Assembly (NCBI GenBank): GCA_028281825.1
Contig: JANQJC010000009.1
Location: forward strand, 8,138 to 72,137
Origin: Flavobacteriales bacterium
GTDB taxonomy: Bacteria; Bacteroidota; Bacteroidia; JANQJC01
Length of the DNA stretch: 64,000 nt
Direction: 5' to 3'
Part shown: positions 15,993 to 37,254 of the stretch, piece after piece
Layout: the number at the start of each line of letters is the position of its first letter
How positions within the stretch are numbered: the stretch's first letter is position 1
Position numbers and translations under genes: made by a program
The notes under the pieces: generated by a model
Database searches by the model: none
What the model was told of the DNA's origin: nothing
Seen by the model: only the letters and a program-made list of their open reading frames with translations

Positions 15993-16898
15993 CTACTTGG
16001 GTCCCAATAGTTTGAATCTAAGCTCTTGTAATAAGTATTCTGCTTTATCTGTAAATCCTTTAGTCTCTAATTCAAGCGCAAGCTTGGTAAATATACTTGG
16101 ATTCAACCCCCTCTTAAAAGTCCTTTTTAAAAAACCATCATCAGAATAGGGCAGCGCACCAGCCTTTAAATGAGGTTTAAGGAGTTTTACCAACTTGTTA
16201 AACTCATTTCTATTATGCCAATAGTAGTCCTTATCAAATTGCCCCATTACCTTCATGCCAATATGCACGGTAAGGTGTAGGTTATCAAAAAGTTTGAAGC
16301 TGCTGGCAAAGGCATAAAGGTTATGGGCAAAAGCAGCTTCAATAAAAGGAACTCCAACACAAATATTGCCTAATTCAAATTTGGGATATAGATTTCTATG
16401 AAATACAAAACAATCAAAACCTGGGTGCGACTTACCTATTTCAGCCCAAATAAGGGGTAGCTCATCTGGCTTACTGTATATTTTTGGGATTCGCCTACGA
16501 TTTATCATAAACGCATCATGGCCTTTATCAATAATTGAAGCTACTGCCGCATAAAAATTGGGTAAAACAGTGATGTCAACGTTGGTGTATATTAAATATT
16601 CAGCATCACTATTCTCATAAACTGTGCTGAGAATATCCTTGAGTAATGGCAATTTTCTCTCTTTTGAAAAAGAAGCAATATCTAAAACTGAATGCTTAAG
16701 GTTGGTTGTTTTGGTAAAGTACTCAGGTATAATGTCAAGGTCTTCTTCGTACTGGGTAGTGAAAAGCTCAACACTTGTATTTTTTGCTAACTCTTTAGCA
16801 ATCCTCATACTTTCGAAGGTGATGGGTTGTGCGACAAACAAGTCTGAAGACTCCTTAACCTTTACCGGGTTAACAATATGTGCTATTGAAACTGCCAC
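15993..16898 (-). CDS. Hypothetical protein (possible GT-A-like transferase) in glycan locus
   Basis: A 301-aa cytoplasmic-looking ORF is co-oriented and tightly spaced with the downstream glycosyltransferase-like gene. I recognised no firm motif. Confidence 0.35.
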   Translation of the reverse strand: MAVSIAHIVNPVKVKESSDLFVAQPITFESMRIAKELAKNTSVELFTTQYEEDLDIIPEYFTKTTNLKHSVLDIASFSKERKLPLLKDILSTVYENSDAEYLIYTNVDITVLPNFYAAVASIIDKGHDAFMINRRRIPKIYSKPDELPLIWAEIGKSHPGFDCFVFHRNLYPKFELGNICVGVPFIEAAFAHNLYAFASSFKLFDNLHLTVHIGMKVMGQFDKDYYWHNRNEFNKLVKLLKPHLKAGALPYSDDGFLKRTFKRGLNPSIFTKLALELETKGFTDKAEYLLQELRFKLLGPK

Positions 16899-16907
16899 TT
16901 TACTAAT

Positions 16908-17843
16908 TTAGTCGAACCAATTGAGATAAGACCAAAGTATTTGCCATTTCGCATTTCGATACTTGACCCAAAAGCCCTCATTTTTAAGTATTTTCTTGGT
17001 GTCTATCTTGAAACCATATTTTTCTAAAACAGCTATATAGTCGTGCAACTGAGCTTTTAATATAGGGTCTTCATCACGCAAAATAGCCGCAATGGTGCAA
17101 TCCGCATAATGAACAAAAACCAATGGATATTTTCCCTCAATCAATATTTTTCCATCTACATTCTCCCGTTTGACCTCCTTTATGTTCCAATATGCTACGT
17201 TACAACCCATGTGTGAAACTACCTTGGTTTTGGGTTCAATTACAGGCATCATGTCCAAGTATTTTTGGTCATCAAACATACCCTGAATGTAGCTTTTGGT
17301 ACATTTATAGATACATGCGTTAGCCCACCAATCCAGGGCAGCTTCAGCACCTTTAGAGACTCCAATAAATCCCGCATTATAGATTCCATCTCTAAAATTG
17401 GTCTCAAACCACAAAGGTTCCTTACTTGGGTTCGACGGTCTCCAGTGAGGAGTTAGTAAGATATGGTTGGTGCTTAGGTCATTCCACAAAAAATCAAAAG
17501 AGTCACTGAAGTAGATGTCGTTATCCACATATATGGCCTTTTCATACCCTCCTTCATTCAAAAGGTAGTTTAGAAAAATAGGTTTAAATGTCCATCTTAG
17601 TTTATCGGGATGTTTTCTATACTTGGCAGTTGCTTCCTTAGCAAATATTGAATTCAACTCGTCCAATGCGCGATACTTTACATTTAGAAAAGAAGTATCT
17701 AAATTTGATAACTCGGTAGCATCACTATCTACAACTAAGACTTCAAGTTCTGAGTCTTTATCAAACTTTAAAATTGAATCAAAAAGTGCATATACTTTCG
17801 GTAAATAACTCTTGGTAGATATGGTACAAATGGCGCGCTTCAT
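16908..17843 (-). CDS. Putative nucleotide-sugar glycosyltransferase (GT-A fold, DxD motif)
   Basis: The DxD motif (AIYVDNDIYF) sits in the context typical of GT-A transferases. There is no signal peptide. Confidence 0.45.
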   Translation of the reverse strand: MKRAICTISTKSYLPKVYALFDSILKFDKDSELEVLVVDSDATELSNLDTSFLNVKYRALDELNSIFAKEATAKYRKHPDKLRWTFKPIFLNYLLNEGGYEKAIYVDNDIYFSDSFDFLWNDLSTNHILLTPHWRPSNPSKEPLWFETNFRDGIYNAGFIGVSKGAEAALDWWANACIYKCTKSYIQGMFDDQKYLDMMPVIEPKTKVVSHMGCNVAYWNIKEVKRENVDGKILIEGKYPLVFVHYADCTIAAILRDEDPILKAQLHDYIAVLEKYGFKIDTKKILKNEGFWVKYRNAKWQILWSYLNWFD

Positions 17844-17890
17844 TGATATTAAAAGAAGGTGCTAAAATTAGGAAATTAAAAGTTGGTAAC

Positions 17891-18946
17891 TTATTGAGCC
17901 AATTCCTGCATTATCAATTCTCTACTAAAAAGATAATACTTATAATGGCCTAAATTGTTTAGATGTGCATCAGGATAATCATTAAACCAATTTTTTGTTG
18001 TTTGTGGTAATTCCAAATATGGCTTTAAGGTAGGTTCATCAAAAATTGCTGAATACTTGCTTCTATACTCTTCCACATCCATATCAGCCTCCTTTATCTC
18101 AGGTATTACAACGATTTTGAGTAGGGTATTATGGTTTTTACAAGTGGTCACAATTTGCTTTAAGTAGCCAATGGTTATTTCAGGTTTTTTAATTAATTGT
18201 TCATATTCGAGTTTTTCCTTTAACCTGAATTTTAAAGAATAAAGTCTGCTCAATAAGCTGCTTTTGGAAGTAATGGATTCAAGAATTCCAATAGGTTCTT
18301 TGAGGTAAAACTTTCTGGCTACTATATAATTATAAGCTTCTTGAGCAGTTTTAAAGTCATTGCCATCAATGTTGGTAAGAATGGCTCCTGCATTGGTGTA
18401 AAAATAAAATGGTTTATTTGGCTTAGGTTCCCTATCTCGTTTCATTAGGTCGTTTCCCATAAAGAAATAAACCAACACTTGTTTTGGTTGCAATTTGGGG
18501 ATATAAGTTTCTGCAAGCAATGAATATTGTGGTGGGTCGGCTGCAGGAATGCCTAGATTAATAACCTGGAATGTTGAATCATTCCCCAATCTGTCGGCAA
18601 AGCAACTATCAATAGGCTCTGCTGTCATCCCCCAAACAAAACTATCACCAATGAGCATCGTTCCACCCTTTACTGATGATGAATCAAGTTCAGAAGTTCT
18701 AAAACCGTCAGTATTAATGCGCTCTGGTTGATATCTATAATAATCCTGATTTGCTACTAAAATTCCCTTATCGTTCACGACAAAATCATTGTATATAATG
18801 AGACTATCAACAGGCTCAAAATTAATCCAGTTTGGACTTATATCTCCAGGTTGATATCCAATAAACCTAAGGGTTGCTTCAATGATACCCATTAAGACCA
18901 GTAGTATGGCCAATTGTATCAATAGTATTTTGAGAAGTTTCTTCAA
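17891..18946 (-). CDS. Membrane-anchored SGNH-hydrolase-like protein (AlgJ/AlgX-like, possible glycan O-acyl transferase/esterase)
   Basis: There is an N-terminal transmembrane anchor. The GDS block is LIGDSFVWG. The C-terminal D-x-H block is DYPDAHLNNLGH. Confidence 0.5.
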   Translation of the reverse strand: MKKLLKILLIQLAILLVLMGIIEATLRFIGYQPGDISPNWINFEPVDSLIIYNDFVVNDKGILVANQDYYRYQPERINTDGFRTSELDSSSVKGGTMLIGDSFVWGMTAEPIDSCFADRLGNDSTFQVINLGIPAADPPQYSLLAETYIPKLQPKQVLVYFFMGNDLMKRDREPKPNKPFYFYTNAGAILTNIDGNDFKTAQEAYNYIVARKFYLKEPIGILESITSKSSLLSRLYSLKFRLKEKLEYEQLIKKPEITIGYLKQIVTTCKNHNTLLKIVVIPEIKEADMDVEEYRSKYSAIFDEPTLKPYLELPQTTKNWFNDYPDAHLNNLGHYKYYLFSRELIMQELAQ

Positions 18947-20003
18947 CAGTGTCTAATTGAAGGAGCTCAGGATATTTATTATTAATTTCTTCAAAAATAC
19001 ATTTTGCCATGATATGATAACCTTTCCCATTAAAATGTCCATCAATTGGCCATGCATATGAGTCGATATTATCTGGATTTAGATATTTACTCATTGGCTC
19101 GTGAAGTACTAAATGAGGCGTGTTGTTTGGTTCAAGGTAAGGAACAACTTTTCTTATATCATCTTGAGTATTGAAGTCATAGCGATGCTCATCTGGAAAC
19201 GCATGTAGTGCAGCTACAAAATCAATATTTCGTGCTTTGGATAGGCTGTCAAAACGAACGATGCATTGAGCAATCTTTTCGATAGCAACCTCTGTTTCCT
19301 TGTTTTTTTGACCTGGAGAAAGCAAAGCATCATCATAGCCAAATGAATGCATAATAGCCCTGCAAACATGGCTGTACTTATAAGGGATAAGCAATAAAGG
19401 TGCTTTTTTAAAAGCTGTTGTTCCATCGTTGAGAAACCGTTCAAAGCCACCACACAACATTACGTCATTAATATCAGAAGAATTAATAATGAGCAACACT
19501 ATATCTATATCAAATTCCTTTAATATGTCTTTAAAAAGTTGGTAGCAGAAAAATACATCACTACCAGCTATACCGGCGTTCCAAACTTCGTATTGGGTTT
19601 TGGGGTTAACATTTAATAAGTTTGATAGCTGTGCGGATATAACGCTATCATTAGTTGTTCCGAAACCTTCTGTAAAAGAATCCCCTATTGTTAAAATCCT
19701 AAGGGAATTAGCCTTTTTTTTCTTGTGAAATTCGGTACCCCTAAATCCCATAGAATTTGCAATAAATTCATACTTAAACTCTTTAAAGTCTCTTGTTACA
19801 ACTTGGCCTGGATTCCATCTATGATAATGTGTAGGATGAGTTTTTCCATAGTATGAATAGAAATACCCGTAAGCGTTCTCGGAATAGGTTAGATAAGTTC
19901 CTTTAAATCTCAAGTATATCTCGTAGGCTAAAACTGGTAAGAATGGAATAAGTATTAAAGCTAATGAGAAGAAATAATACCTAAACTTTTCTTTCAAGAC
20001 CAT
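18879..20003 (-). CDS. Membrane-anchored SGNH-hydrolase-like protein, paralog of the downstream gene
   Basis: It has the same architecture as its neighbour: an N-terminal transmembrane segment, LTIGDSFTEGFG, and a C-terminal DGHFNGKGYH. Its end overlaps the neighbour's start by 68 nt. Confidence 0.5.
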   Translation of the reverse strand: MVLKEKFRYYFFSLALILIPFLPVLAYEIYLRFKGTYLTYSENAYGYFYSYYGKTHPTHYHRWNPGQVVTRDFKEFKYEFIANSMGFRGTEFHKKKKANSLRILTIGDSFTEGFGTTNDSVISAQLSNLLNVNPKTQYEVWNAGIAGSDVFFCYQLFKDILKEFDIDIVLLIINSSDINDVMLCGGFERFLNDGTTAFKKAPLLLIPYKYSHVCRAIMHSFGYDDALLSPGQKNKETEVAIEKIAQCIVRFDSLSKARNIDFVAALHAFPDEHRYDFNTQDDIRKVVPYLEPNNTPHLVLHEPMSKYLNPDNIDSYAWPIDGHFNGKGYHIMAKCIFEEINNKYPELLQLDTVEETSQNTIDTIGHTTGLNGYH

Positions 20004-20020: not shown

Positions 20021-21457
20021 TTAATCTTTAATGCTGTAAAAGTTCTTTGCTTTTTCTTTAAGCTCAGACATGTCTTGGGTTTCTATCGAAATCAGGAACT
20101 CTTCAATGGCCATATCATTGCTTAAATCTACTCTTGAGTATATATCTCCAGATTTGAACTCCCCAGGCATTTCACTATCTAGCAATGTTAATTTCTCAAG
20201 CAGCAATTTAGTTCTTGCTAAATCGAACTTTTCCAAAAAGTATTCCTCCTTGAGCTTATTCTTAATCAAACCTTTAAAGTCATGAAAGGAGTTTATGCTA
20301 ACTAAACTCTCATTGATGGTTATCCAATTTTCAATTTGATTGATAATATCTTTAAAATGCCTTTTGTTTTTATTATGGACGTTGCTTTCTTCAGGAAGAC
20401 TAGGTAAGATAGGTCTTAAATAATCTAGAATTTCCTTTAGCTCACTTGGTTTTAAGGTTCTAATTGCTAAATTCAATGGGTAAAACACCGTATGAAAATA
20501 AACCTGTATATCCCTTTCATTACAAAATGATATCATGTCAGGTATTTCCTTCCAGTTATTTCTCATGGCACAAGCAGAAATACCAATAAAGGTGTTCTTC
20601 TCACGACAGTAATTGATATACCACTTAACGTTTTCCATCACCCTTTCAAATTTGGCATTCACCCTTATACTTTCATAGGTTTCTTTTTGGAGAGAGTCTA
20701 ATGAAATATTGATGTGGAAATTAGTCTTATTAAGAATGCTTTTTACGCGATTGTTAAGTATAGTAGCGTTCGTCTGAACTTGAATCCTGACGTTTGGATT
20801 AATCTCCATAATTAACTCCCAAATCTTATAGTAAGTTTCTATAAGAAAAGGTTCTCCACCATAAAATTTTACATCTTCCAAGTAAGGAATAAACTCTTTT
20901 AATTGTTCGATGAATGTATTGTCATAAGGACTTACTAGCGGTTCTCTTTTTTCACGATTTGCCCTTATTAATGAAGAAAAATCACCATTGCACATAGTAC
21001 ACTCAAGGTTGCATAAATTCTCCAATTCAAATTCCATAACCGATGGATATCCGTTAGGGTTTTGTCTATGCAAGTCATATTGTTTGGATTTTACAGCATC
21101 AAAGTTTTCAGCGACCAAGTGAGCGAGGCAACCTTTGCAACCGTATGAAAAGTCATAGTTCGCTAAGGCATCTCGTAATTTTTTTGTGTTTTCGCCAAAC
21201 CAGATTTCCTTAATTGATTCTTCTGGATATGTTCCTAAAATGAATTGTCTATTGTAGCAGCATACCGCCAATCTTCCATGATGACCAAAATAAATACTCC
21301 TATATGGAGCATAACATGCACTGGAATTATTAAATTGTTTTCTCCGACTGTTATACTCTATTGTGAGTTCCTCGGTAATCCCATCACTTGCTTTCGATAG
21401 ATTTGGGATTTTTTTTTCAGAGAAAAAGTTGCTTAGAGTTCTTAAAAATTTGTTCAT
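20021..21457 (-). CDS. Radical SAM enzyme with N-terminal SPASM-like Cys-rich domain (copy A)
   Basis: The CxxxCxxC motif is CNLECTMC, followed by the glycine-rich SAM motif FYGGEPF. About 90 aa upstream of the core is a C-x12-G-x4-CC motif (CYAPYRSIYFGHHGRLAVCC) and a CKGC pair. Confidence 0.75.
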   Translation of the reverse strand: MNKFLRTLSNFFSEKKIPNLSKASDGITEELTIEYNSRRKQFNNSSACYAPYRSIYFGHHGRLAVCCYNRQFILGTYPEESIKEIWFGENTKKLRDALANYDFSYGCKGCLAHLVAENFDAVKSKQYDLHRQNPNGYPSVMEFELENLCNLECTMCNGDFSSLIRANREKREPLVSPYDNTFIEQLKEFIPYLEDVKFYGGEPFLIETYYKIWELIMEINPNVRIQVQTNATILNNRVKSILNKTNFHINISLDSLQKETYESIRVNAKFERVMENVKWYINYCREKNTFIGISACAMRNNWKEIPDMISFCNERDIQVYFHTVFYPLNLAIRTLKPSELKEILDYLRPILPSLPEESNVHNKNKRHFKDIINQIENWITINESLVSINSFHDFKGLIKNKLKEEYFLEKFDLARTKLLLEKLTLLDSEMPGEFKSGDIYSRVDLSNDMAIEEFLISIETQDMSELKEKAKNFYSIKD

Positions 21458-21497: not shown

Positions 21498-22895
21498 TTA
21501 TAGGTTTTCGAGATCTTTTTTCTCGAGAGAAATAATATAATCCTCAACTAAAAAATCGTTGCTAAGGTCAACCTTTGATATATGACCAGTATAACTATAA
21601 TTGTCTGGAAGTCGTTCATGAATAAAGCCCATTTTCTTAATAATGGAGTCAGCTCTCTCGGAAGAAAATTTCCGAAGAAAATAAGGTTCACTTAGCTTGT
21701 TTTCTATAAATGACTTAATAGCCTCAAATGAATTCAAATTAGCCTTGGTTTCCTTTATCCTCGCCCAATCATTAATTTGGTTTATGACATCGCCTAAATG
21801 TTTTTTGTTCTTTTTTTCTAAACTGCTTATCTCTGGAAGGTCTGAAATGATTTCATTGTAAGTTTTTCTGATGAGATTTAAGTTCTCAAGTTCTAAATCT
21901 CTTATTGATAGTTCAAGAGGGTAAAAGACAGTGTGGAAATAAACCTGAACACTTTTCTCATTGCAGAATTTGACCATTTCGGGTAATTCTTCCCAGTTAT
22001 TCCTCATTGCGCATGCTGAAATACCTATAAAAGTTTCTTTTTCATGACAATAATCTATGAACCATTTTATATTTTCTATAACCCTTTCAAATTTTCCATT
22101 AATTCGAATGCTTTCATATGTTTCTTTATTAAGGGAGTCCAGTGAAATATTGATATGGAAATTGGTTTTATTGAGAATGTTCTTAACTCGATTATTGAGG
22201 ATGGTAGCATTGGTTTGAACCGAAATTCTGACATTGGGATTAACTTCCATAATTAACTCCCAAATCTTGTAATAGATCTCGATTAAGAACGGTTCACCAC
22301 CGTAAAACTTTACTTCCTCAAGATGTGGGATAAACTCTTTTAATTGTTCAATAAATGCAGCGTCATAAGGAATGTCAAGTGGTTCTCTTTTTTCACGATT
22401 AGCCCTTATCAGTGAAGAAAAATCACCATTGCACATAATGCACTCCAAGTTGCATAAGTTCTCCAATTCAAATTCCATCACTGATGGATACTTGTTTCTA
22501 TTGAGCTTTTGTAAGTCATACTGCTGGGCTTTTGTAGCATCAAAATTGCTAGCGGCCAACTGCATTAAACATCCATCACAACCATTTGAGAAGTCATATT
22601 TTGTGAGAGCATCTCGTAATTTGTTAGCATTTTCTCCAAACCAAATATCTTTGATTGACTGTTCTGGATAAGTGCCTAAAGTATATTGCCGGGTATAGCA
22701 GCAAACGGATAACCTTCCATGATGTCCAAAGTAGATGCTCTTAAAAGGTGCATAGCAAGCCACTTTTTGCGGACCTTTTGGACGACTATTATTATACTCT
22801 TTAACTAACTCTGGGGTGATTCCGCCGCTGGCTTGAGACAGGTCGGGAACTATCTCTTTCCTAAATAGATTGCTTACCTTGTCCAAAAACTCCAT
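21498..22895 (-). CDS. Radical SAM enzyme with N-terminal SPASM-like Cys-rich domain (copy B, tandem paralog)
   Basis: It carries CNLECIMC, FYGGEPF and the same N-terminal C-x12-G-x4-CC plus CDGC. It is collinear with copy A, with clear nucleotide-level similarity across the core. Confidence 0.75.
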   Translation of the reverse strand: MEFLDKVSNLFRKEIVPDLSQASGGITPELVKEYNNSRPKGPQKVACYAPFKSIYFGHHGRLSVCCYTRQYTLGTYPEQSIKDIWFGENANKLRDALTKYDFSNGCDGCLMQLAASNFDATKAQQYDLQKLNRNKYPSVMEFELENLCNLECIMCNGDFSSLIRANREKREPLDIPYDAAFIEQLKEFIPHLEEVKFYGGEPFLIEIYYKIWELIMEVNPNVRISVQTNATILNNRVKNILNKTNFHINISLDSLNKETYESIRINGKFERVIENIKWFIDYCHEKETFIGISACAMRNNWEELPEMVKFCNEKSVQVYFHTVFYPLELSIRDLELENLNLIRKTYNEIISDLPEISSLEKKNKKHLGDVINQINDWARIKETKANLNSFEAIKSFIENKLSEPYFLRKFSSERADSIIKKMGFIHERLPDNYSYTGHISKVDLSNDFLVEDYIISLEKKDLENL

Positions 22896-24733: not shown

Positions 24734-24789
24734 ATGATGCAATCTGGATGTTGAGAAAATGGGTGGAAGTTCAAAGTAGAGGTGCTTTT

Positions 24790-24797
24790 GGTATGGA
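24790..24797 (-). promoter_or_regulatory. Candidate Bacteroidota sigma-A -7 box (TATATTTG on minus strand) for the asnB / radical-SAM / SGNH / GT operon
   Basis: It matches TAnnTTTG and lies about 55 nt upstream of the MCGIAG start. Confidence 0.25.
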
Positions 24798-24882
24798 ACA
24801 AATATAAGCACACAATACATATTGACAATTAATGATATTAGATGCCCGTGTTATGGTATTGTTTCATTGTTCATGAAATTGG

Positions 24883-24890: not shown

Positions 24891-24921
24891 CTTTATTCCA
24901 CTTAGTGAGCAGACATTTTTA

Positions 24922-29826: not shown

Positions 29827-29836
29827 GGTTAATACT

Positions 29837-31220: not shown

Positions 31221-32140
31221 TGGAGCCTGTTAAGGTGAGTGTGGTTGTAGTAACTTACAATCACGAAAAATATATATCTGATGCTATCAAAAGCATATTG
31301 GCCCAAAAGGTCAATTTTAAGATAGAAGTCATTATTGCTGATGATGGCTCCACAGATAACACTCCCACTATAGTTGATCAGTTTGCCAAGAACTATCCTG
31401 ATACAATTGTCCCATTACGCTCTGCCGAAAATCGAGGAGTTTTTCAGAATGCATTCAGTGCCAGGTTTAAGGTGCGGGGGCAGTACATTGCCTTGCTAGA
31501 TGGTGACGATTACTGGGATTATGAGTTGAAGCTACAAAAGCAGGTTGACTTCCTTGATGGGAACAGTGAGTATAATGGTGTCTTCCATGATGCCAAGATT
31601 ACACACATAGATAGCTCTGATAAAGTTCTCTTTGCTCAAAAGCATCTCTATTCTCAAAATTATCTCTTTAAAGAAGAAATTTACCCTTCAGACTTTATCC
31701 AAAGGGAAATTATCTTACCCTCATCATCAGCAATGATTAGATCTTCTGCATTGGATGGAGTGGATATCAGTATCATTAAGAATAACTATTCCTTTTTTTG
31801 GAAAGTTTGTTGTTTTATCATCAGGCAATCTAAGTTTTATTTCATCAATGAGCCTTGGAGTGTATATAGAAACCATCAACAGGGTATATCTAAGCGTAAT
31901 AATTACGAATTCCATACTTCGCATATTAAGTTTTTGGAAACTCTCTTGGAAGAGGAATTTTACAAAAACTATAAGTATAATGTGTGTCAGGCTATTGCTA
32001 ATGAATACAAAGTGCTACTTGATTCAAGCCATGAAGAAGTAAGGAAGAACATAAGGACTATTTTTAAGCAGTATGTCCGTAACGAGGTGCGCAGAATATG
32101 GCATTACAGGAAAAAGGTAATAGGTAAAGGAGAACAGTGA
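31220..32140 (+). CDS. Family 2 glycosyltransferase
   Basis: The GT2 N-terminus is VSVVVVTYNHEKYI...IIADDGSTDNT, with LLDGDDYW downstream. Confidence 0.8.
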   Translation: MEPVKVSVVVVTYNHEKYISDAIKSILAQKVNFKIEVIIADDGSTDNTPTIVDQFAKNYPDTIVPLRSAENRGVFQNAFSARFKVRGQYIALLDGDDYWDYELKLQKQVDFLDGNSEYNGVFHDAKITHIDSSDKVLFAQKHLYSQNYLFKEEIYPSDFIQREIILPSSSAMIRSSALDGVDISIIKNNYSFFWKVCCFIIRQSKFYFINEPWSVYRNHQQGISKRNNYEFHTSHIKFLETLLEEEFYKNYKYNVCQAIANEYKVLLDSSHEEVRKNIRTIFKQYVRNEVRRIWHYRKKVIGKGEQ

Positions 32141-32917
32141 ATGAAGCCAGCCAAGAGTATCCCCCGCATATCACCTATACATAAGACTAAATTTTTCAAA
32201 GAATATGTTTCTCTGGCTAAGCCTGTAATTATTGAAGGTTTGGTAGATGAGTGGCCCGCTTTTGGCAAATGGAGTATGCAGTATTTTGCAGAAAGGTATG
32301 CTAAGGTGGCTCCTGTTACTGTTAAGGTCAAGGATGGGAAACACGATTTTGACTTGGAGCATGGCACTGGCATATTCAACAAGCCTATGGAAGAGACGCT
32401 CAAAAAAATAATGGCTGGAAATGTTAGCGAGGGATATGCCATAGGCACTACTGATGAAGTCTTTCCGCAGGAGCTAAGAGACGATTACCCCACCCCAGGG
32501 TATTGTGCTGATGGTAAGTATTTAAGAGCGCGTATTTTTATTGGGGCAAAAGGCACTATTACCGAAACCCATCAAGACTTGTTCGAGAACCTTTATACTG
32601 TAGTCAAAGGTTCAAAGCGTATTTACCTTTTTGAGCCAAAGGATAGTATATACCCTAACTCCCGTTTCTCAAAGCTGCCCAACTTTGCGCGGACTGACCC
32701 CGAGAATCCCGATTATGAAAACTATCCAAAAATGCGGAATGCCCAACCATATGTTGTAGATTTGAAGGCTGGTGAGACCCTCTTTTTACCAAGCCTGTGG
32801 TGGCATTACGTTAAGAACCAAGAGGAAAGTATAGCTGTGAGTTATTGGTGGGCATATGGATGGAAACTACCTTTGGTGTGGGCCGCAGTGCAGTATAAAA
32901 AGTTCAGGGGTATCTAG
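32141..32917 (+). CDS. JmjC/cupin-8 domain oxygenase
   Basis: The HxD motif is THQDLFEN within a double-stranded beta-helix context. The distal His lies in SLWWHYVKN, which is typical of cupin-8/JmjC hydroxylases. Confidence 0.55.
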   Translation: MKPAKSIPRISPIHKTKFFKEYVSLAKPVIIEGLVDEWPAFGKWSMQYFAERYAKVAPVTVKVKDGKHDFDLEHGTGIFNKPMEETLKKIMAGNVSEGYAIGTTDEVFPQELRDDYPTPGYCADGKYLRARIFIGAKGTITETHQDLFENLYTVVKGSKRIYLFEPKDSIYPNSRFSKLPNFARTDPENPDYENYPKMRNAQPYVVDLKAGETLFLPSLWWHYVKNQEESIAVSYWWAYGWKLPLVWAAVQYKKFRGI

Positions 32918-32952: not shown

Positions 32953-34506
32953 ATGGGTAAGAAGCTATTATATAGAATCTTATTGACTGCAATTGTTGTA
33001 GTCACTTCCGTATTTCATAATGACTCATTGAGATATGGCCTTTCTACCGATGGACCTGATGTGTGGGAGTACCAGACGGTAGCCGTCAATTTTTCAGAAT
33101 ATGGGGAGTTTCCCACAATGGGCTTTATTGGAGACGAGCCTTGCTACCAAACTAATATACTTGAAGGCAATACCCTCTCCAACTACATGAAATGTAGGTT
33201 TTCAACCCCTGGACCACTAGTCTATTTGGCGAAACCCCCTGCTTATCCCTTTATACTTGGTTTGGTTTACAAGATATTTGGAGCCAACCTCAAGTATGCC
33301 TACAACCTTAATTTATTATTTTTCATTGGAATCGTCTTTGTGTTGATAGGGATGGGGCAAACCATCAATAATGACTATGGGGTGCTACTTGGAGTATTAG
33401 CAGGGCTTCTATTTGGTACGCAAGTCTATCATAGCTTGTCGGATGTCCTTCCGGCTATCATGATGACTTTCTTTTTTGCCTGCATTGCATGGGTGGGGGT
33501 GTTGGTTGTAAAAACTCCAACACATAAGAAATTCTCCTTGATGGGTATTATGATTGGACTAGGCTTATTGACCAAAGGAGATATCAGTTTTATAGCCATA
33601 CTAATCCCTATTTGCTTAGCTTTCTTCTTATTCCGTATCGATAAGTTGATGACTAAAATGGTGATAATGTTCTTATCCGTTGCCCTCGTGTTACTGCCTT
33701 GGGTTATCTATGCTAACTATTTGAGGGTAAATACACAAACAGAAAGAGTGGAGTGGAAGCAGAAACTGTTAGAATCAGAGCAAGTGTGTGAATTGGATAC
33801 TTCCAAAAGAGAGGAGTGGGAGAATCGAGGCAGTATTATTGAAAACAAAGAGTATCATTCACTAGCAACTCACTTTTATTCAAGATACGCGATTGGAGAT
33901 AAAATGGTGATAATTTCCAATCAAGTTAATAAGGACGAATGGCTTTCAGTGCACAATGAATTTAGTACTGATGGGCATTGGCACCCAGAGTGGAGAGTAA
34001 GGGAAAGTGCCATTTACAATAATAAATATCAAGACAAACCTGTTTTGATGAAGGTCGTCTCATTCTATGCGGATAATCCAAGTCTCTTTTTCAAGATAGC
34101 TATGGCCAAGTTGGTAAGGGCGACAAGTAGTACCAACACCTTTTTGCTGCTTGCTGCATTTTTGTTTGGATGTTTGATGTGGATGTTGGGAATAGGAGTA
34201 GATAAGACGTTTTTAAATGTTATTTTTTTGTTGATTTCAGGGTTAGGATATTTAATATTACACCATCTCAATTTTCAACTTTTAATCGTTTATACCATTA
34301 TATTCTTTTTATCAGGATTATTATTGTTTAGAAGAAACATGATAAAAGACATTCCATTTATATTTCCATTGTTCATTCTAAATACCTTTTTAATCACATT
34401 TATTTTTTATGGAGACGCCAGGTTTGTATACGTGATTGAGCCAATTGCTATCTTTTCAGCCCTTTATTTCCTATCTTCGTTAGTTAAAAGTTTTTTTGAA
34501 CGCTAG
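32953..34506 (+). CDS. Polytopic membrane glycosyltransferase-like protein (GT-C fold, ArnT/PMT-like)
   Basis: N-terminal transmembrane helices are followed by AKPPAYPF in the first periplasmic loop, as in GT39/GT83 enzymes. A soluble middle domain and a C-terminal transmembrane bundle follow. Confidence 0.4.
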   Translation: MGKKLLYRILLTAIVVVTSVFHNDSLRYGLSTDGPDVWEYQTVAVNFSEYGEFPTMGFIGDEPCYQTNILEGNTLSNYMKCRFSTPGPLVYLAKPPAYPFILGLVYKIFGANLKYAYNLNLLFFIGIVFVLIGMGQTINNDYGVLLGVLAGLLFGTQVYHSLSDVLPAIMMTFFFACIAWVGVLVVKTPTHKKFSLMGIMIGLGLLTKGDISFIAILIPICLAFFLFRIDKLMTKMVIMFLSVALVLLPWVIYANYLRVNTQTERVEWKQKLLESEQVCELDTSKREEWENRGSIIENKEYHSLATHFYSRYAIGDKMVIISNQVNKDEWLSVHNEFSTDGHWHPEWRVRESAIYNNKYQDKPVLMKVVSFYADNPSLFFKIAMAKLVRATSSTNTFLLLAAFLFGCLMWMLGIGVDKTFLNVIFLLISGLGYLILHHLNFQLLIVYTIIFFLSGLLLFRRNMIKDIPFIFPLFILNTFLITFIFYGDARFVYVIEPIAIFSALYFLSSLVKSFFER

Positions 34507-34533
34507 GCATACGTTGTAAAGGAGGAGAAAAGC

Positions 34534-35544
34534 ATGGATACTTACAGGTTATTGCAGATGGGTGCTGCTTATGCGCAGAGTTTATCTTCGTTTCACTTAA
34601 ATGGGAAGCCACGCCCGTTTTCTGCTTCTTTTGCGATTACCAATAAGTGTAATTTGAGGTGCACCTATTGTGATTTACCCAATATCAAAGCACCAGAACT
34701 CAATCTGGAGCAAATGGATGTCCTTTTCAGGAAATTGAAGAAAATGGGCGTCTTGAGGCTCGGTATCTTTGGTGGTGAACCCATGGTGAGGAAAGATTTG
34801 GGGGAGATTATCAAATTAGCTAAGAAACGAGGCTTTTTTGTCAGTCTTAACTCCAATATGCTGTTGTATGACAGGTATAAAGATGTGCTTGACCCAGTTG
34901 ATTACTTTTTTGTGAGTATAGATGGCACTGCTGAGAAACATGCAATAAATAGAGGTAAACAGAGCTACGAAAAGATTCTCGAAGCAACTCGGGATTTAGT
35001 AAAACGCAAGAAGAAAGTAACAGCAATATCTGTTGTAACTGACCCTGATAAGTCTATGGCAGATTATATGGTTGACCTAGCTGTGCGTGAGAAGATAGAT
35101 GTGCATTTTCAGCCTGAGTGCTATGATTCAATGTGTGCAGGGAGGACTGCGCCTGACGACCTAGAGCATGAAGCAACAAGGGATTTTTGGTTATACCTGC
35201 TGGAAAAGAAGAAACAGGGAGCTCCCATCACCAGTTCTACTGGTTATTTGAAATTTATCAGTCAATGGCACAATTACAAACAGACTTCGGTATACGATGC
35301 TGAACATCGTTGCATGGCGGGGAGCGGATTTATTTCAATAGATCCTTCTGGTATTGCTTATCCTTGTATTTTTACACAGGGTAATTTTGAAGGGGTTGAC
35401 TTGATGAAGTATAATTGGGAAGATAAATTTGATGGAAAGACCCCTTGCACTACCTGCATTGTAGGTCCTTTGTTGGAGTATAACTTATTGTTTAAGAAAC
35501 CAATAAGGTCTACTATTGAAGCGTTGGGTAAGGCAGTTTATTAA
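34534..35544 (+). CDS. Radical SAM / SPASM(twitch)-domain enzyme
   Basis: The radical SAM motif is ITNKCNLRCTYCD, followed by GIFGGEPM. The C-terminal SPASM-type motif is C-x12-G-x4-C (CMAGSGFISIDPSGIAYPC), with CTTC downstream. Confidence 0.75.
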   Translation: MDTYRLLQMGAAYAQSLSSFHLNGKPRPFSASFAITNKCNLRCTYCDLPNIKAPELNLEQMDVLFRKLKKMGVLRLGIFGGEPMVRKDLGEIIKLAKKRGFFVSLNSNMLLYDRYKDVLDPVDYFFVSIDGTAEKHAINRGKQSYEKILEATRDLVKRKKKVTAISVVTDPDKSMADYMVDLAVREKIDVHFQPECYDSMCAGRTAPDDLEHEATRDFWLYLLEKKKQGAPITSSTGYLKFISQWHNYKQTSVYDAEHRCMAGSGFISIDPSGIAYPCIFTQGNFEGVDLMKYNWEDKFDGKTPCTTCIVGPLLEYNLLFKKPIRSTIEALGKAVY

Positions 35545-35560
35545 AAAAGTATAAGAGCCA

Positions 35561-36409
35561 ATGGCTTCTATGGACATGAATAAAGAAGTGGTTACAAAAG
35601 AGGATTTATTAAAGTACTATGATGAGTGCTGGCTAGAGAGATTTGAGAAGGGCCATAATCCTAAATCACTCGCTATGCACCTTGGTTATTTTACTGAGGA
35701 AAGCATGGATAACGATGCCGCCAAGGTAAATACCAATAAGTTCTTGGCCGAGCATTTAGGTATTAAAAATGATACCAAAGCCAGTTTGGCTGACTTTGGT
35801 TGCGGAATTGGTGGCACTTGCATTTACCTGGCTAAAAACTATCCTAACCTAAGGATAAGTGGTATCAATATTTCTTCAACACAAGTTGATTTTGCCAACA
35901 GGATTAAAGAACAAAACAATATTAATGGCCAAATTGAGTATTTGATTTCAGATTACTCAAAAACGAATCTTGCCGACTCAAGTTTAGATTATGTAATTGC
36001 AGTAGAGAGCATATGCCATGCGGTAGATAAGCAAAAGGTATATTCAGAGGCTTATCGAGTGCTAAAACCAGGGGGGCGCTTCGTATTCATGGACTATTTT
36101 GAAGAGCGAGAAGCTAACACCCCTGAAGAACTAGAATGGTTAAGTGACTTTAGAAAAGGCTGGGCCATTATTGAATATATAAGAAATCACGGTGAATTAC
36201 TTAGCCAGGTAGATTTTAGCCATATCACCCAAACATCGCTTCTGGATAAAGTAGGACCAGGTATTTTAAATTCATATACCAAGGCAGTTGCCAAACTTGG
36301 GGACAATAGCTCTGAGACATTTAATAATCATTTAAAGGCTTGTGTTGCCCTTAAAGAACTTACAGACAGGGGCATTATAGATTATAAGATAATTACCGCT
36401 CAAAAGTAA
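35561..36409 (+). CDS. Class I SAM-dependent methyltransferase
   Basis: Motif I is LADFGCGIGG and the post-I acidic residue is ISGINIS. The scaffold resembles CFA synthase or sterol MTases. Confidence 0.8.
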   Translation: MASMDMNKEVVTKEDLLKYYDECWLERFEKGHNPKSLAMHLGYFTEESMDNDAAKVNTNKFLAEHLGIKNDTKASLADFGCGIGGTCIYLAKNYPNLRISGINISSTQVDFANRIKEQNNINGQIEYLISDYSKTNLADSSLDYVIAVESICHAVDKQKVYSEAYRVLKPGGRFVFMDYFEEREANTPEELEWLSDFRKGWAIIEYIRNHGELLSQVDFSHITQTSLLDKVGPGILNSYTKAVAKLGDNSSETFNNHLKACVALKELTDRGIIDYKIITAQK

Positions 36410-37254
36410 TTGGCATTCGCGGCCAGTTTTACCAGTATCATTGCTATTCCTGCAATTAGAAAAATGGCGCGAGAAATCTTTTGGAATTTCTTTATTTCCT
36501 TGTCTCTCATTATTAGAGACATAATAAGCAAGGTGGCCGTGGGCACAACAAAAGCATAAAACGCGATAGTCTCAATAATGTTGAAAAAGAAGAGTGTATT
36601 CCAGTAAAACAGCGTAAAAGCTATCAGCACGGTTCTTAAAAGCAACACCTTATCTTTTCCAATTCTGACTGCCGTAGTTTTGCTGCCAGTACTTTTGTCA
36701 TCATCGTAGTCCATTATTTCATGATGAAAGTGGCCCGCAGATAAAAGTAAAGCAAAGTTGATAGAAATAGTCAATGATTCTATACCATATTCTTGATAGC
36801 TGCAGTATCCAGTATGAAAATGTAATACACCTGCTAGCAGGTGTATTAAAGTACCTCCTAAAAAAGTTGATTTTAGGCGCAAGGGCTGCAGATAGTAGAA
36901 GCCCCATAAAAGTAATGAGGATAGGCTAAGTATCAGTACAGTGACATTGACAGCATAAGATAACACACCGAACAAAACACAAAAGAGAATGAATAACTGG
37001 ATGTAGGTCTGTTTGGAAATATCACCCACAATTTTCAGTCTTTTAGAGTGTTTGTCCTTTTCATAATCAGCAAAGGAATTCATGGCAAAAACGGCCAACA
37101 CATAGAAGAAAACAAAAAAGAAAACAGTGATATTTTTCAACCAGTTGGTCCAGCCTGAAACATCAGTGAATAAAATGCCTATGAAAGAAAAGCCTGTCAT
37201 CAATAAGATTTCTTTCAAACGCAATGACTTTACTAGTGAAAGTGTTTTGTCCAA
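36400..37254 (-). CDS. UbiA-family prenyltransferase / polyprenyl-phosphate phosphoribosyltransferase-like membrane protein
   Basis: It has eight or nine transmembrane helices. The first Asp-rich motif is NxxxDxxxD (NSFADYEKD) in a cytoplasmic loop. Confidence 0.5.
   Translation of the reverse strand: MDKTLSLVKSLRLKEILLMTGFSFIGILFTDVSGWTNWLKNITVFFFVFFYVLAVFAMNSFADYEKDKHSKRLKIVGDISKQTYIQLFILFCVLFGVLSYAVNVTVLILSLSSLLLWGFYYLQPLRLKSTFLGGTLIHLLAGVLHFHTGYCSYQEYGIESLTISINFALLLSAGHFHHEIMDYDDDKSTGSKTTAVRIGKDKVLLLRTVLIAFTLFYWNTLFFFNIIETIAFYAFVVPTATLLIMSLIMRDKEIKKFQKISRAIFLIAGIAMILVKLAANANYF

Follow-up and report, generated by a model that had tools for sequence, protein, structure and literature searches.

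A candidate envelope-glycoconjugate locus encoding four oxygenases and three radical-SAM enzymes in an uncultured Bacteroidota

What does a Wzm/Wzt-type exporter carry when the genes beside it encode four Fe(II)/2OG oxygenases, three radical-SAM (rSAM) enzymes and several glycosyltransferases? This question is raised by a genuine 23-kb cluster of closely spaced genes in the genome of an uncultured Bacteroidota that possesses a type IX secretion system. The cluster lies within a 64,000-nucleotide stretch of DNA (the window). A first-pass annotation of this DNA had placed open reading frames at positions where we also find them, and its enzyme family assignments hold for all proteins but one, with catalytic residues intact. 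As detailed below, we conclude that the locus is built from two modules, and we favor, at a probability of about 0.5, a role in making an envelope glycoconjugate.

Layout of the locus and its boundaries

The features of the locus are as follows.

15993–16898, minus strand: conserved 301-aa protein encoded after the GT8 gene (orthologs at 47–82% identity in L003, L033, L049 and L063)
16908–17843, minus strand: GT8-family glycosyltransferase (Glyco_transf_8, 32.3 bits versus a cutoff of 24.3)
17891–18946, minus strand: N-terminally membrane-anchored SGNH/GDSL protein a (Lipase_GDSL_2, E 3.6e-5, below cutoff; TM-like residues 1–31)
18879–20003, minus strand: N-terminally membrane-anchored SGNH/GDSL protein b (Lipase_GDSL, 30.4 bits versus 23.6; TM-like residues 7–33)
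20021–21457, minus strand: N-twitch rSAM paralog 2, whose N-terminal domain is twitch/SPASM-like (NF033640 N_Twi_rSAM, 160 bits versus 170)
21498–22895, minus strand: N-twitch rSAM paralog 1, also with its twitch domain at the N-terminus (NF033640, 167 bits versus 170)
22952–24733, minus strand: AsnB-type glutamine-hydrolysing amidotransferase (TIGR01536, 472 bits versus 267; GATase_7 and Asn_synthase)
24734–24921, no strand: divergent candidate promoter region of 188 bp (TAnnTTTG at 24799–24806, minus, and 24883–24890, plus)
24922–25734, plus strand: Wzm ABC-2 permease (ABC2_membrane, 32.2 bits versus 26.9; 4-nt overlap with wzt)
25731–26897, plus strand: Wzt ATPase carrying a carbohydrate-binding-type domain at its C-terminus (ABC_tran; Wzt_C, 37.9 bits versus 30.4)
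26905–27273, plus strand: bitopic membrane protein of 122 aa that probably partners the HTTM-like protein (N-terminal TM segment, then a conserved domain of ~80 aa)
27270–28241, plus strand: 323-aa polytopic protein, remotely HTTM-like or vitamin-K-dependent-carboxylase-like (exhaustive profile search and conserved residues)
28242–29174, plus strand: PhyH-family oxygenase (PhyH, 63.5 bits; H129/D131/H211 invariant in 6 orthologs)
29161–29826, plus strand: soluble AspH/OlsC/LpxO-family hydroxylase (Asp_Arg_Hydrox, 104.5 bits; H121/H168 invariant)
29837–30442, plus strand: NeuD/PglD/VioB-family hexapeptide acyltransferase (TIGR03570, 134 bits versus 160.8; PglD_N and Hexapep)
30444–31220, plus strand: TauD-family oxygenase, TMLD/BBOX-like (TauD, 67.9 bits; H92/D94/H227/R236 invariant)
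31220–32140, plus strand: soluble GT2 (Glycos_transf_2, 91.7 bits; no TM segment)
32141–32917, plus strand: Cupin_8/JmjC oxygenase, JMJD5-like over its full length (Cupin_8, 162 bits)
32953–34506, plus strand: GT-C fold transferase, PMT_2/ArnT-like (PMT_2, 30.6 bits versus 26.1; ~10 TM segments)
34534–35544, plus strand: PTO1314-like rSAM enzyme, rSAM336 (Radical_SAM, 79.5 bits; TIGR03961, 106 bits versus 306)
35561–36409, plus strand: class I SAM methyltransferase (Methyltransf_11, 71.9 bits; secondary CMAS and UbiE matches)
36400–37254, minus strand: UbiA-family membrane prenyltransferase (UbiA, 89.1 bits; convergent with the methyltransferase gene, 10-nt overlap)
37295–38782, minus strand: secreted 495-aa transglutaminase-like protein with Cys-His-Asp (signal-like N-terminal segment)

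The plus-strand operon had been described as 14 tightly overlapping genes. The tight packing is borne out, with six of the 12 junctions overlapping or abutting and all gaps at 35 bp or less, but the count is 13. Likewise, the divergent operons are separated by 188 bp rather than the 100 bp given previously, and 101 bp is obtained only when the longest AsnB reading frame is taken. We place the true AsnB start at MCGIAG (24733) because this supplies the nucleophile Cys2 and yields a protein of 593 aa, in agreement with its orthologs (590–594 aa). The candidate -7 boxes noted earlier on both strands of this region do exist, and TAnnTTTG occurs 58 times in the window, fewer than expected from shuffling. 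The presence of two correctly oriented copies within 188 bp is suggestive but no proof. Another copy (38808–38815, minus strand) lies by the transglutaminase-like gene, which belongs to the system and extends the locus from its previously assigned end at 37254 to 38782. GC content is 0.33–0.385 over 16–32 kb, compared with 0.40–0.44 in the left flank and 0.38–0.43 in the right.

A conserved cassette and a variable module

The locus combines a conserved cassette with a module of AsnB, N-twitch rSAM, SGNH and GT8 genes. The cassette comprises Wzm, Wzt with its carbohydrate-binding module (CBM), the bitopic partner, the HTTM-like protein, the PhyH, AspH-like and TauD-like oxygenases, the PglD-like enzyme, the GT-C, the PTO1314-like rSAM enzyme, the methyltransferase and UbiA. 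The full version, which also includes GT2 and Cupin_8, is present in four genomes (the window and those designated L145, L084 and L146), where the 13-gene operon and UbiA are syntenic. Genome L147, whose copy of the 323-aa marker is 42% identical, is without Cupin_8 and retains GT2 at a different position. In L149, a 7.4-kb contig with the marker at 40% identity, the block runs from Wzm to TauD, where the contig ends. The other carriers are likewise uncultured relatives. As had been proposed, the oxygenase/rSAM block travels with wzm/wzt, which lie directly upstream in every contig holding the 323-aa marker. Furthermore, the genes for UbiA, the PTO1314-like rSAM enzyme and Cupin_8 lie next to one another, with some overlaps, in three more genomes (L085, L086 and L150; L088 duplicates L086).

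The second module behaves differently, in that its copy number and content vary strongly between genomes. Its N-twitch rSAM family counts 412 relatives across the species genomes of GTDB; GT8 is found in 18 of 77 N-twitch-rSAM loci, and the SGNH a family occurs in 17 loci and is associated with GT8 (Fisher p = 0.005). The 301-aa gene directly follows GT8 in L003 also. With UbiA and the transglutaminase-like gene forming a third transcription unit, the single functional unit described in the first-pass annotation resolves evolutionarily into two separable modules plus this third unit.

Companion genes in related loci likewise encode glycan enzymes: by Pfam, NAD epimerases, Gly_transf_sug proteins, a sulfotransferase and a GT-C with TPR repeats. 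Others encode GT4 (L084), a carbamoyltransferase (L085), and a GT9 heptosyltransferase and FdtA-like protein (L086). A PP-loop protein (SGGRDS) was also recognised among them, by eye only. Within the locus and its flanks we found no gene for NDP-sugar synthesis, an aminotransferase, an initiating phosphoglycosyltransferase, a ligase or outer-membrane export, and the conserved core contains one Leloir glycosyltransferase. This gene content offers little backing for the O-antigen-like polysaccharide implied earlier.

Tailoring enzymes and membrane components

The exporter is of the Wzm/Wzt type, as first annotated, with a Wzt_C CBM at the Wzt C-terminus; of the NCBIfam models, TagH and galactan Wzt match this Wzt best, neither reaching its cutoff. 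The logic that combines a CBM with a terminal modification has been described (PMC11127046).

Each of the four predicted oxygenases retains its iron ligands, the loss of which had been named as a finding that would make the locus ordinary. The active-site sets of PhyH, AspH-like and TauD enzymes are invariant across six cassettes, and that of Cupin_8 is conserved in its own family alignment (H144 and H222 invariant, D146 at ≥90%). The AspH-like enzyme aligns with human ASPH over P-H-x-G and FDDxFEHE, with H-x-G at the aligned position, and scores 102 bits on the OlsC model (cutoff 450). The nearest NCBIfam models for the TauD-family protein, trimethyllysine and gamma-butyrobetaine dioxygenases, match far below cutoff, and residues 2–238 of the Cupin_8 protein match JMJD5 (PDB 4gaz) at E 1.3e-32.

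All three rSAM enzymes carry the expected CxxxCxxC. The two N-twitch enzymes are paralogs (65% identity); paralog 2 has its SPASM-like domain at residues 48–110, upstream of Radical_SAM, and carries CNLECTMC, and paralog 1 has invariant C148/C152/C155 and five invariant N-terminal Cys. A PDB sequence search with paralog 1 gave no match. The closest structures to its AF2 model (pLDDT 85) are viperin, SkfB, BlsE, MoaA and DesII, at a TM-score of ~0.35 over the core only. The PTO1314-like enzyme, whose C-terminal Cys residues could bind an auxiliary cluster, has GDGT-MAS (7tol) as its top PDB match (E 2e-8) and weakly matches peptide maturase models. AsnB passes the generic asparagine-synthase equivalog, the sole NCBIfam equivalog passed in the locus, and no equivalog-level match names the function of any tailoring enzyme.

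The one family assignment that we could not support is that of the 301-aa protein as GT-A-like: Pfam, NCBIfam and PDB searches returned no match, and the sole hint is an invariant T-N-x-D-I motif. Two SGNH/GDSL proteins are present as reported, but they show no significant BLAST similarity that would make them paralogs. A PDB sequence search with the GT-C protein gave no match. UbiA most closely matches the archaeal-type PRK12884 model and AfUbiA (4tq3), scores weakly on MqnP and MenA models, and is not PPPRS-like.

The two most unusual conserved parts of the system were absent from the first-pass annotation. One is the 323-aa protein with its bitopic partner, whose gene precedes it in every cassette and overlaps it here by 4 nt. 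The 122-aa partner has no Pfam match, and its soluble domain is conserved along its whole length, like a folded subunit. Searching 5.8 billion proteins yielded only 9 close relatives of the 323-aa protein, whose AF2 model (pLDDT 85.5) gave no informative fold match. Judged from its sequence, it is a remote HTTM (vitamin-K-dependent-carboxylase-like) protein, because an exhaustive profile search gave two independent significant matches connecting it to proteins that pass Pfam HTTM, and these share its K136-x4-W141, D183 and H214. The Lys-x4-Trp...Asp signature corresponds to GGCX Lys218/Trp223/Asp263 (PMC12647623). The other part is the transglutaminase-like protein, in which C128/H154/D169 are invariant among 16 homologs, 12 of which match Transglut_core (best E 2.6e-6). 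Its top PDB profile match is PNGase (2f4m, E 0.022), and it co-occurs with Wzt (Fisher p = 0.002). The predicted periplasmic components of the system are the SGNH proteins, which bear a signal or anchor, the transglutaminase-like protein, the bitopic partner, the GT-C and the HTTM-like protein.

Candidate product and comparison with known systems

We favor a composite envelope-glycoconjugate locus, whose lipid-linked product would be modified in the cytoplasm, leave through Wzm/Wzt and be completed in the periplasm, because Wzm/Wzt with Wzt_C, the GT2, GT8, GT-C and NeuD/PglD enzymes and the glycan genes of related loci point to a glycan. The conserved cassette, the retained oxygenase residues, the periplasmic components, the co-occurrence of the transglutaminase-like protein with Wzt, the HTTM link and a described arrangement of UbiA-family synthase, GT-C and Wzm/Wzt argue in the same direction. 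Against this reading stand the missing pathway genes listed above, the single Leloir glycosyltransferase, a UbiA that is not PPPRS-like, and the fact that the closest characterised relatives of several tailoring enzymes (JMJD5, ASPH/OlsC, TMLD/BBOX and GGCX) have proteins, amino acids or lipids as substrates, not sugars.

The data show which genes are present, which catalytic residues they retain, how far they are conserved and which of them co-occur; the substrates, product, step order and topology that follow are inferred. A polyprenyl-phosphate-linked sugar or short glycan, probably bearing a carboxylate or amino-acid-like substituent, would be built on the cytoplasmic face by GT2, plus GT8 in this genome. 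Still in the cytoplasm, it may undergo N-acetylation (PglD-like), conversion of carboxylate to carboxamide (AsnB), C–H hydroxylation by the four oxygenases, radical chemistry by the rSAM enzymes, and methylation. The Wzt C-terminal domain would then check the finished head group before Wzm/Wzt flips the product. In the periplasm, the HTTM-like protein and its bitopic partner may act as a split vitamin-K-carboxylase-like enzyme using menaquinol and O2, the anchored SGNH esterases could also process the exported product, and the GT-C and secreted transglutaminase-like enzyme would deliver it to a final acceptor.

Almost every tailoring family has a protein-modifying archetype, and the locus might instead serve post-translational modification of a protein or peptide that is secreted or displayed at the surface. 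The hydroxylases, amidotransferase, rSAM enzymes, carboxylase-like HTTM enzyme, PMT-type GT-C and transglutaminase-like enzyme would then share a polypeptide substrate, and the ABC-2 system would export that polypeptide or a lipid-linked glycan donor for it. The full-length JMJD5 match (E 1e-32), the good alignment with human ASPH, the representation of GGCX/HTTM, the protein O-mannosyltransferase family PMT_2, the transglutaminase/PNGase fold and the peptide maturase matches all fit this idea. Giant PKD/CHU_C adhesin genes adjoin the locus in the window and L084, but no such neighbours were seen in L146, L147 or L149. We nonetheless consider protein modification unlikely. A search of all cassettes for a conserved small ORF or candidate precursor found none, and the 122-aa protein is conserved as a subunit would be. 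AsnB is a full glutamine-hydrolysing enzyme that scores 220 bits on the lasso-cyclase model, against a cutoff of 525; the oxygenases carry no signal peptide, yet the folding of surface proteins takes place beyond the cytoplasm; and the neighbourhood consistently holds glycan genes.

Quite unlikely, in our view, is a conventional serotype locus for an O-antigen or capsule that follows the ABC-transporter-dependent pathway and has an unusual number of decorating enzymes. Wzm/Wzt with a CBM, glycosyltransferases, an acetyltransferase, a methyltransferase and AsnB (for uronamide formation) are standard O-antigen parts, GC is lower than in the left flank and in most of the right one, the N-twitch-rSAM module varies greatly between genomes, and the initiating WecA is commonly encoded elsewhere (PMC11127046). 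However, sugar-nucleotide genes are missing from the locus, the methyltransferase has neither the kinase nor the coiled-coil terminator of the WbdD type, none of the proteins passes an NCBIfam equivalog dedicated to making O-antigen, capsule or teichoic acid, and HTTM-like, UbiA and transglutaminase-like proteins are present. Moreover, serotype loci do not hold their gene content constant while their proteins diverge. Cassette content and order here do the opposite, remaining constant down to ~40% protein identity, and the locus does not look like an ordinary serotype O-antigen cluster. A third idea, a tailored isoprenoid lipid or prenylated quinone-type compound, seems to us very unlikely. 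UbiA would prenylate an acceptor, modification of the lipid or ring would fall to the rSAM, methyltransferase, PhyH and OlsC-like enzymes, ABC-2 would flip the product, and the HTTM-like enzyme would use quinol. This agrees with the archaeal-type affinity of UbiA and its weak MqnP and MenA scores, the tetraether synthase match of the PTO1314-like enzyme, the CMAS and UbiE/MenG matches of the methyltransferase, the nearness of the AspH-like enzyme to the lipid hydroxylases OlsC and LpxO, the UbiA/rSAM/Cupin_8 adjacency, and the binding of prenyl-naphthoquinol by GGCX (PMC12647623). Yet all of the supporting matches are far below family cutoffs in broad families, and a lipid-only pathway leaves Wzt_C, GT2, GT8, GT-C, the NeuD/PglD acetyltransferase and the glycan-gene neighbourhoods unexplained.

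Our literature searches found no paper describing such a locus, and the earlier view that it has no described counterpart stands for the whole. It does not extend to the UbiA, GT-C and Wzm/Wzt logic, which has an analogue in three-component periplasmic glycosylation by a UbiA-family synthase, a GT-C and Wzm/Wzt (PMC11127046). Precedents for the carboxylase-like pair also exist elsewhere, in MloH, a small-molecule carboxylase, and in HTTM proteins of bacteria that come with a bitopic partner. The overall logic proposed here resembles Arn-type or three-component periplasmic modification more closely than O-antigen polymerisation.

Gene content and layout of the locus

The locus comprises seven genes on the minus strand and a divergent plus-strand operon that begins with the Wzm permease gene at 24922, followed by a convergent UbiA gene and a gene for a secreted transglutaminase-like (TG-like) protein. 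Genes lie where the first-pass annotation had mapped them, and the plus operon holds 13 genes rather than the 14 counted there.

Genes of the minus-strand operon and of the right-hand end of the locus (window coordinates, strand, product)
15993-16898, minus, 301-aa protein without a family
16908-17843, minus, GT8 glycosyltransferase
17891-18946, minus, SGNH/GDSL protein with an N-terminal membrane anchor
18879-20003, minus, SGNH/GDSL protein with an N-terminal membrane anchor
20021-21457, minus, radical-SAM enzyme with an N-terminal SPASM/twitch-like domain
21498-22895, minus, radical-SAM enzyme with an N-terminal SPASM/twitch-like domain
22952-24733, minus, full glutamine-hydrolysing AsnB
36400-37254, minus, UbiA, converging on the methyltransferase gene
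37295-38782, TG-like 495-aa protein with a signal-like N-terminus

In the plus operon, Wzm and Wzt (with a Wzt_C domain) are followed by a 122-aa bitopic protein, a 323-aa polytopic protein, PhyH, an AspH/OlsC-like protein, a NeuD/PglD-type acetyltransferase and a TauD-like protein, and then by GT2, Cupin_8, a PMT_2-type GT-C, a third radical-SAM (rSAM) enzyme and a SAM methyltransferase. Of the 12 plus-strand junctions, 6 overlap or abut (gaps of -14 to +35 bp); wzm and wzt share 4 nt. Two conserved parts, the TG-like protein and the 323-aa protein, were missing from the earlier parts list. The two SGNH proteins, previously called paralogs, exhibit no detectable mutual similarity, and no support was found for the 301-aa ORF as a GT-A-like enzyme.

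We place the start of AsnB at MCGIAG (24733), because the nucleophilic cysteine must be exposed and orthologs are equally long, which makes the divergent intergenic region 188 bp long rather than 100 bp. The candidate boxes proposed for both strands are present in this region, as one TAnnTTTG per strand. Scans for sigma-70 promoters and terminators gave matches not above chance, and tRNA and Rfam scans gave none. The GC content is 0.33-0.385 across 16-32 kb of the locus, compared with 0.40-0.44 in the left flank and 0.38-0.43 in the right. A 186-aa antisense ORF (29551-30111, minus), which lies wholly inside the AspH-like and acetyltransferase genes, is probably spurious.

The flanking genes encode housekeeping proteins and cargo of the type IX secretion system. 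The minus operon is followed directly by a gene for a 1777-aa protein (10516-15849, minus) with approximately 19 PKD domains and a CHU_C sorting domain for type IX secretion, and just past it (8246-10511, plus) lie a third GDSL/SGNH protein, weakly similar to SGNH_a (E 1e-6), and an adjacent family-less 389-aa protein. Scattered cargo genes, each with a Por_Secre_tail (40577-43324, minus; 2335-5549, plus), include a trypsin-like protease with a PKD domain, an S15 peptidase and an esterase. At 48929-51110 (minus), a fusion of ComA-type phosphosulfolactate synthase and rhodanese adjoins a VCA0040-like protein (Pfam: undecaprenyl phosphate translocase-like), a pair that may be related to sulfonate or sulfonolipid metabolism.

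A fixed cassette and a variable module

Comparison with related loci from other genomes, designated by L numbers, reveals that the locus is a composite of separable modules. The 323-aa protein, for which 5.8 billion proteins include only nine close relatives, is a marker for the first of these. In every contig that carries it the order Wzm, Wzt, bitopic protein, 323-aa protein, PhyH, AspH-like protein, LbH acetyltransferase and TauD-like protein is the same, and therefore the oxygenase block travels with wzm/wzt, a point that the first-pass annotation had raised. GT-C, rSAM, methyltransferase and convergent UbiA come next in L084, L145, L146 and L147; the L149 contig (7.4 kb) stops after TauD. 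Four cassette genomes have GT2 and Cupin_8 between TauD and GT-C, and in L147 Cupin_8 is missing and GT2 is relocated. AsnB and the TG-like gene both adjoin the cassette in the window, L084 and L145, and AsnB also does so in L146. Probably only the window and L145 have the full 21-kb arrangement in common; the L145 contig stops shortly after AsnB.

A sub-core of UbiA, rSAM and Cupin_8, together with GT-C, AspH, PhyH and B12-rSAMs, occurs in the further genomes L085, L086 and L150. The L085 and L086 genomes carry this triad without the full cassette, and a protein of the FGE-sulfatase family and a second Cupin_8 are convergent to it (L085 10781-13182; L086 10778-13463).

The second module is defined by the rSAM enzymes with the N-terminal twitch-like domain (N-twitch rSAMs), a family with 412 relatives among GTDB species genomes. 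We kept 77 distinct loci, almost all labelled MAGs, which are mostly from Chitinophagales, Saprospiraceae and Crocinitomicaceae, with a few from other phyla. Within ±10 kb of the N-twitch rSAM genes, the partners are an unknown 404-aa family (43/77), a 378-aa UbiA (33/77), AsnB (29/77), SGNH proteins (26/77 and 17/77), Gly_transf_sug (22/77), a methyltransferase and an NAD epimerase (19/77 each), Wzt and GT8 (18/77 each), and a GT-C with TPR repeats and PhyH (16/77 each). Also recurrent are B12-rSAMs, a sulfotransferase, a WelO5-like oxygenase and a carbamoyltransferase.

The whole minus operon is reproduced in L003 at 59-82% identity. Copy numbers in N-twitch modules vary widely, with four N-twitch rSAMs in L072 and eleven PhyH paralogs in L082. 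Three of the L072 paralogs are in tandem, and the group (4507-14148) adjoins AsnB, TG-like and Wzm/Wzt genes. In L082 (1-12169) the PhyH-family genes surround one Wzt and one N-twitch rSAM, an extreme oxygenase expansion that continues into the L150 block of UbiA, rSAM, Cupin_8, AspH and three B12-rSAMs. Because L082 and L150 abut, both module types reside in one stretch of more than 40 kb in GCA_964631835.1 (contig CAZWAD010000002.1, about 123-165 kb). All carriers found are MAGs or sequencing-run assemblies, and no cultured carrier was identified among them. The window sequence itself was met only on one NCBI contig of 72.6 kb and in the Logan run SRR20820735.

Protein families and conserved residues

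According to the first-pass annotation, the locus would be ordinary if its four oxygenase-like proteins lacked their iron ligands. These ligands are kept, and the enzymes look active. Residues H129/D131/H211 of PhyH, H92/D94/H227/R236 of the TauD-like protein and H121/H168 of the AspH-like protein are retained in six orthologous cassettes; in Cupin_8, H144 and H222 are invariant and D146 nearly so among 23 homologs. The alignment of the AspH-like protein with human ASPH runs through the shared motifs P-H-x-G and FDDxFEHE, and its H-x-G is not a defect because the aligned human enzyme likewise has Gly at the carboxylate position. Cupin_8 is JMJD5-like along its full length (E 1.3e-32), and its likeness to the JmjC hydroxylases (JMJD5, JMJD7, FIH) consists in similarity across the whole JMJD5 catalytic domain, with an HxD...H triad. 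JMJD5, JMJD7, FIH and ASPH differ from the locus proteins, which are bacterial, small and stand-alone, belong to an operon of glycan type and lack a recognisable protein substrate, a TPR domain and a membrane anchor.

All three rSAM enzymes carry CxxxCxxC (CNLECTMC, CNLECIMC and CNLRCTYC). The two N-twitch enzymes are 65% identical to each other, C148/C152/C155 of the 21498-22895 enzyme is invariant among 16 homologs, and a SPASM-like match at residues 47-110 precedes the rSAM core, as in the architecture of NF033640, a model on which they score 160 and 167 bits, just under its curated cutoff of 170. The modelled N-twitch rSAM structure had only generic rSAM-core neighbors, with nucleotide- or sugar-acting enzymes slightly ahead, so that no substrate can be called from it. 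At the equivalog level of NCBIfam, AsnB is the sole locus protein to reach a cutoff, that of the generic asparagine-synthase model only.

The exporter is recognizable from both subunits. Wzm scores 32.2 bits on ABC2_membrane (cutoff 26.9) and Wzt 73 bits on ABC_tran, with the TagH and galactan Wzt models as its best NCBIfam matches, under their equivalog cutoffs. Wzt_C is matched at residues 251-364 (37.9 bits, cutoff 30.4) and recurs in L084 and L145, with a weak match in L146. Leloir-type glycosyltransferases are limited to a single GT2 in the core and the GT8 in the accessory module, and the GT-C, with approximately 10 TM segments, scores 30.6 bits on PMT_2 (cutoff 26.1). Between 15993 and 38782 there is no dehydratase, epimerase, aminotransferase or nucleotidyltransferase. 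We rejected the methyltransferase as a WbdD terminator, since it is a 282-aa protein with a lone class I domain and neither a kinase nor a coiled-coil ruler.

On sequence comparison with PDB and NCBIfam, we also rejected UbiA as a polyprenyl-phosphoribose synthase. A phmmer search of all PDB chains (E ≤ 0.1) matched AfUbiA (4tq3) alone and no such synthase, although a published DPPRS structure (8j8j) exists. None of the 15 NCBIfam families matched at E ≤ 0.01 is a phosphoribosyltransferase, and the best is the archaeal-type PRK12884. Locus proteins contain no domain of a HAD-type phosphoribose phosphatase or of a MATE, SMR or GtrA flippase.

The 323-aa protein matches no Pfam family, HTTM included, at E ≤ 0.01, a closer relative (P0184) likewise has no HTTM match, and its AF2 model (pLDDT 85.5) recovered no informative structural neighbor and no GGCX. 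An exhaustive profile search with the family returned 419 relatives, and the distant ones include a DCC1-like domain fusion and proteins that pass the Pfam HTTM threshold. Two of these, P0234 and P0262, match the family profile (E 2.5e-10 and 4.2e-9; 1.8 billion proteins searched) and score 29.7 and 30.6 against the HTTM gathering score of 27.7, with overlapping matched regions. K136-x4-W141, D183 and H214 are invariant in the 323-aa family, within the region shared with these relatives, and the first two elements align with the same residues of P0234 and P0262. Human GGCX has Lys218 as its general base, stacked on the conserved Trp223 and beside Asp263 (PMC12647623); the K-x4-W spacing is identical, and Lys and Asp are 47 residues apart here versus 45 in GGCX. 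The 323-aa protein is thus a candidate HTTM, or vitamin-K-dependent-carboxylase-like, protein by an assignment that is transitive, without a direct Pfam or structural match.

Its putative partner, the 122-aa protein, has an N-terminal TM helix and a conserved soluble domain and is translationally coupled to the downstream 323-aa gene. This mirrors the pairing of bacterial HTTM proteins with a bitopic DUF5819 protein encoded next to them (bioRxiv 10.64898/2026.08.19.745780), except that the 122-aa protein gives no Pfam match, DUF5819 included. MloH, the fused carboxylase of malonomycin biosynthesis (bioRxiv 10.64898/2026.08.19.745780), shares the biosynthetic-cluster setting. In contrast to known HTTM and GGCX proteins, the 323-aa protein has no propeptide-binding or DCC1 domain.

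The TG-like protein has an invariant Cys128/His154/Asp169 triad. It scores 16 bits on Transglut_core (cutoff 23), a family matched by 12 of 16 homologs (best E 2.6e-6), and its family profile aligns best with peptide N-glycanase (PNGase), Cys with Cys and His with His (E 0.022). In related loci the gene often follows Wzt directly (co-occurrence p = 0.002), and a literature search for transglutaminase-like proteins with Wzm/Wzt found nothing relevant among the matches listed.

Possible product and likeness to known systems

We read the locus as an ABC-transporter-dependent glycoconjugate assembly system with periplasmic finishing. The CBM-bearing exporter, the GT2, GT8 and GT-C enzymes, the NeuD/PglD-type acetyltransferase and the glycan-type neighborhoods suggest that the product is most likely a lipid-linked glycoconjugate. 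Sugar-nucleotide genes and an initiating transferase are absent, there is one core Leloir glycosyltransferase, and gene content is fixed despite divergence, which argues against an ordinary O-antigen; an ordinary serotype locus is a description that fits the variable N-twitch module better than the fixed cassette. As predicted from gene content, conserved residues and co-occurrence, the molecule would be assembled in the cytoplasm with heavy oxidative, radical, amidating and methylating tailoring, exported through Wzm/Wzt under gating by the CBM, processed in the periplasm by the HTTM pair and the SGNH esterases, and finally transferred to an acceptor by the GT-C and/or the TG-like enzyme.

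A serious rival is a system that modifies proteins or peptides, since the archetypes here, JMJD5, ASPH, GGCX, PMT and transglutaminase, all modify proteins. Such a system is harder to reconcile with the lack of a conserved precursor gene: no short ORF that might encode a RiPP precursor is conserved across six cassettes, and the 122-aa ORF has the character of a folded subunit. We also rejected AsnB as a lasso cyclase, since it keeps Cys2, passes TIGR01536 and scores 220 bits on a lasso-cyclase model with a cutoff of 525. Nor is adjacency to a giant adhesin conserved. The orthologous cassette of L084 has a gene for a 3809-aa SprB/PKD/CHU_C protein next to it, but L146, L147 and L149 show no adjoining PKD/CHU_C gene, so we treat the adjacency as coincidence and rejected the adhesin as the modification target. 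An isoprenoid lipid or quinone product is also alive as an explanation, in view of the weak matches of UbiA, the third rSAM enzyme and the methyltransferase, but it leaves the glycan machinery unexplained.

Beyond glycoconjugate assembly in general, the locus could represent a new class of envelope pathway, in which a cytoplasmically oxidised lipid-linked head group is exported by Wzm/Wzt, undergoes a split vitamin-K-carboxylase-like periplasmic step and is attached by GT-C and/or transglutaminase-like chemistry. We consider this minority reading unlikely. The split step would use menaquinol- and O2-driven carbanion chemistry, for example carboxylation, and the transglutaminase-like ligase could use an AsnB-made carboxamide as an ATP-independent acyl donor. 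If true, GGCX-type chemistry would for the first time act on a glycoconjugate of the bacterial surface.

If the reading of the locus holds, then uncultured Chitinophagales, Saprospiraceae and other Bacteroidia make a surface or envelope molecule without chemical structural precedent, multiply hydroxylated, amidated, methylated and possibly carboxylated. The reading would also provide a biological setting for the orphan N-twitch rSAMs (412 GTDB species-genome relatives), bacterial HTTM/GGCX-like proteins and Wzt-associated transglutaminase-like protein. The compact conserved cassette of 12-16 genes can be synthesized and expressed, and is thus testable without a cultured host.

In agreement with the first-pass annotation, we found no described counterpart for the whole locus in the searched literature, and none was found there that links O-antigen with twitch rSAMs, JmjC proteins or 2OG dioxygenases, or Wzt with 2OG and rSAM enzymes. 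With the ABC-dependent O-polysaccharides of E. coli O9a and K. pneumoniae O2a, it has in common an ABC-2 permease, a Wzt with a Wzt_C-type domain, cytoplasmic glycosyltransferases and a methyltransferase within the operon, and an initiating enzyme outside the locus. It differs in lacking a WbdD-like kinase/coiled-coil terminator and sugar-nucleotide genes, in having one or two Leloir glycosyltransferases, in its constant gene content across distant genomes, and in adding four 2OG oxygenases, three rSAMs, the HTTM-like protein, UbiA and the TG-like protein.

The closest described logic is periplasmic post-export modification, in which a polyprenyl-P donor comes from a UbiA-family synthase or ArnC, leaves the cytoplasm by way of a flippase and is transferred by a GT-C (PMC11127046). 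Three-component extracytoplasmic glycosylation, with a UbiA-family polyprenyl-phosphoribose synthase, a flippase and a GT-C, is exemplified by C. youngae O1/O2 (GT136) and mycobacterial arabinan and is related to the Arn pathway (ArnC/ArnT) (PMC11127046). The locus does not qualify as a member: its UbiA is of another subtype, with no detectable similarity to DPPRS/PPPRS, and the locus contains neither a HAD phosphatase nor a MATE, SMR or GtrA flippase. As in these systems, a UbiA-family enzyme, a PMT_2/ArnT-like GT-C and a Wzm/Wzt-exported substrate come together in one locus. Cytoplasmic enzymes may remodel the polyprenyl-P donor before export (PMC11127046), and those of the locus could likewise act on a lipid-linked donor before it is flipped, as epimerases and ArnD do, with tailoring that would be oxidative and radical rather than epimerising.
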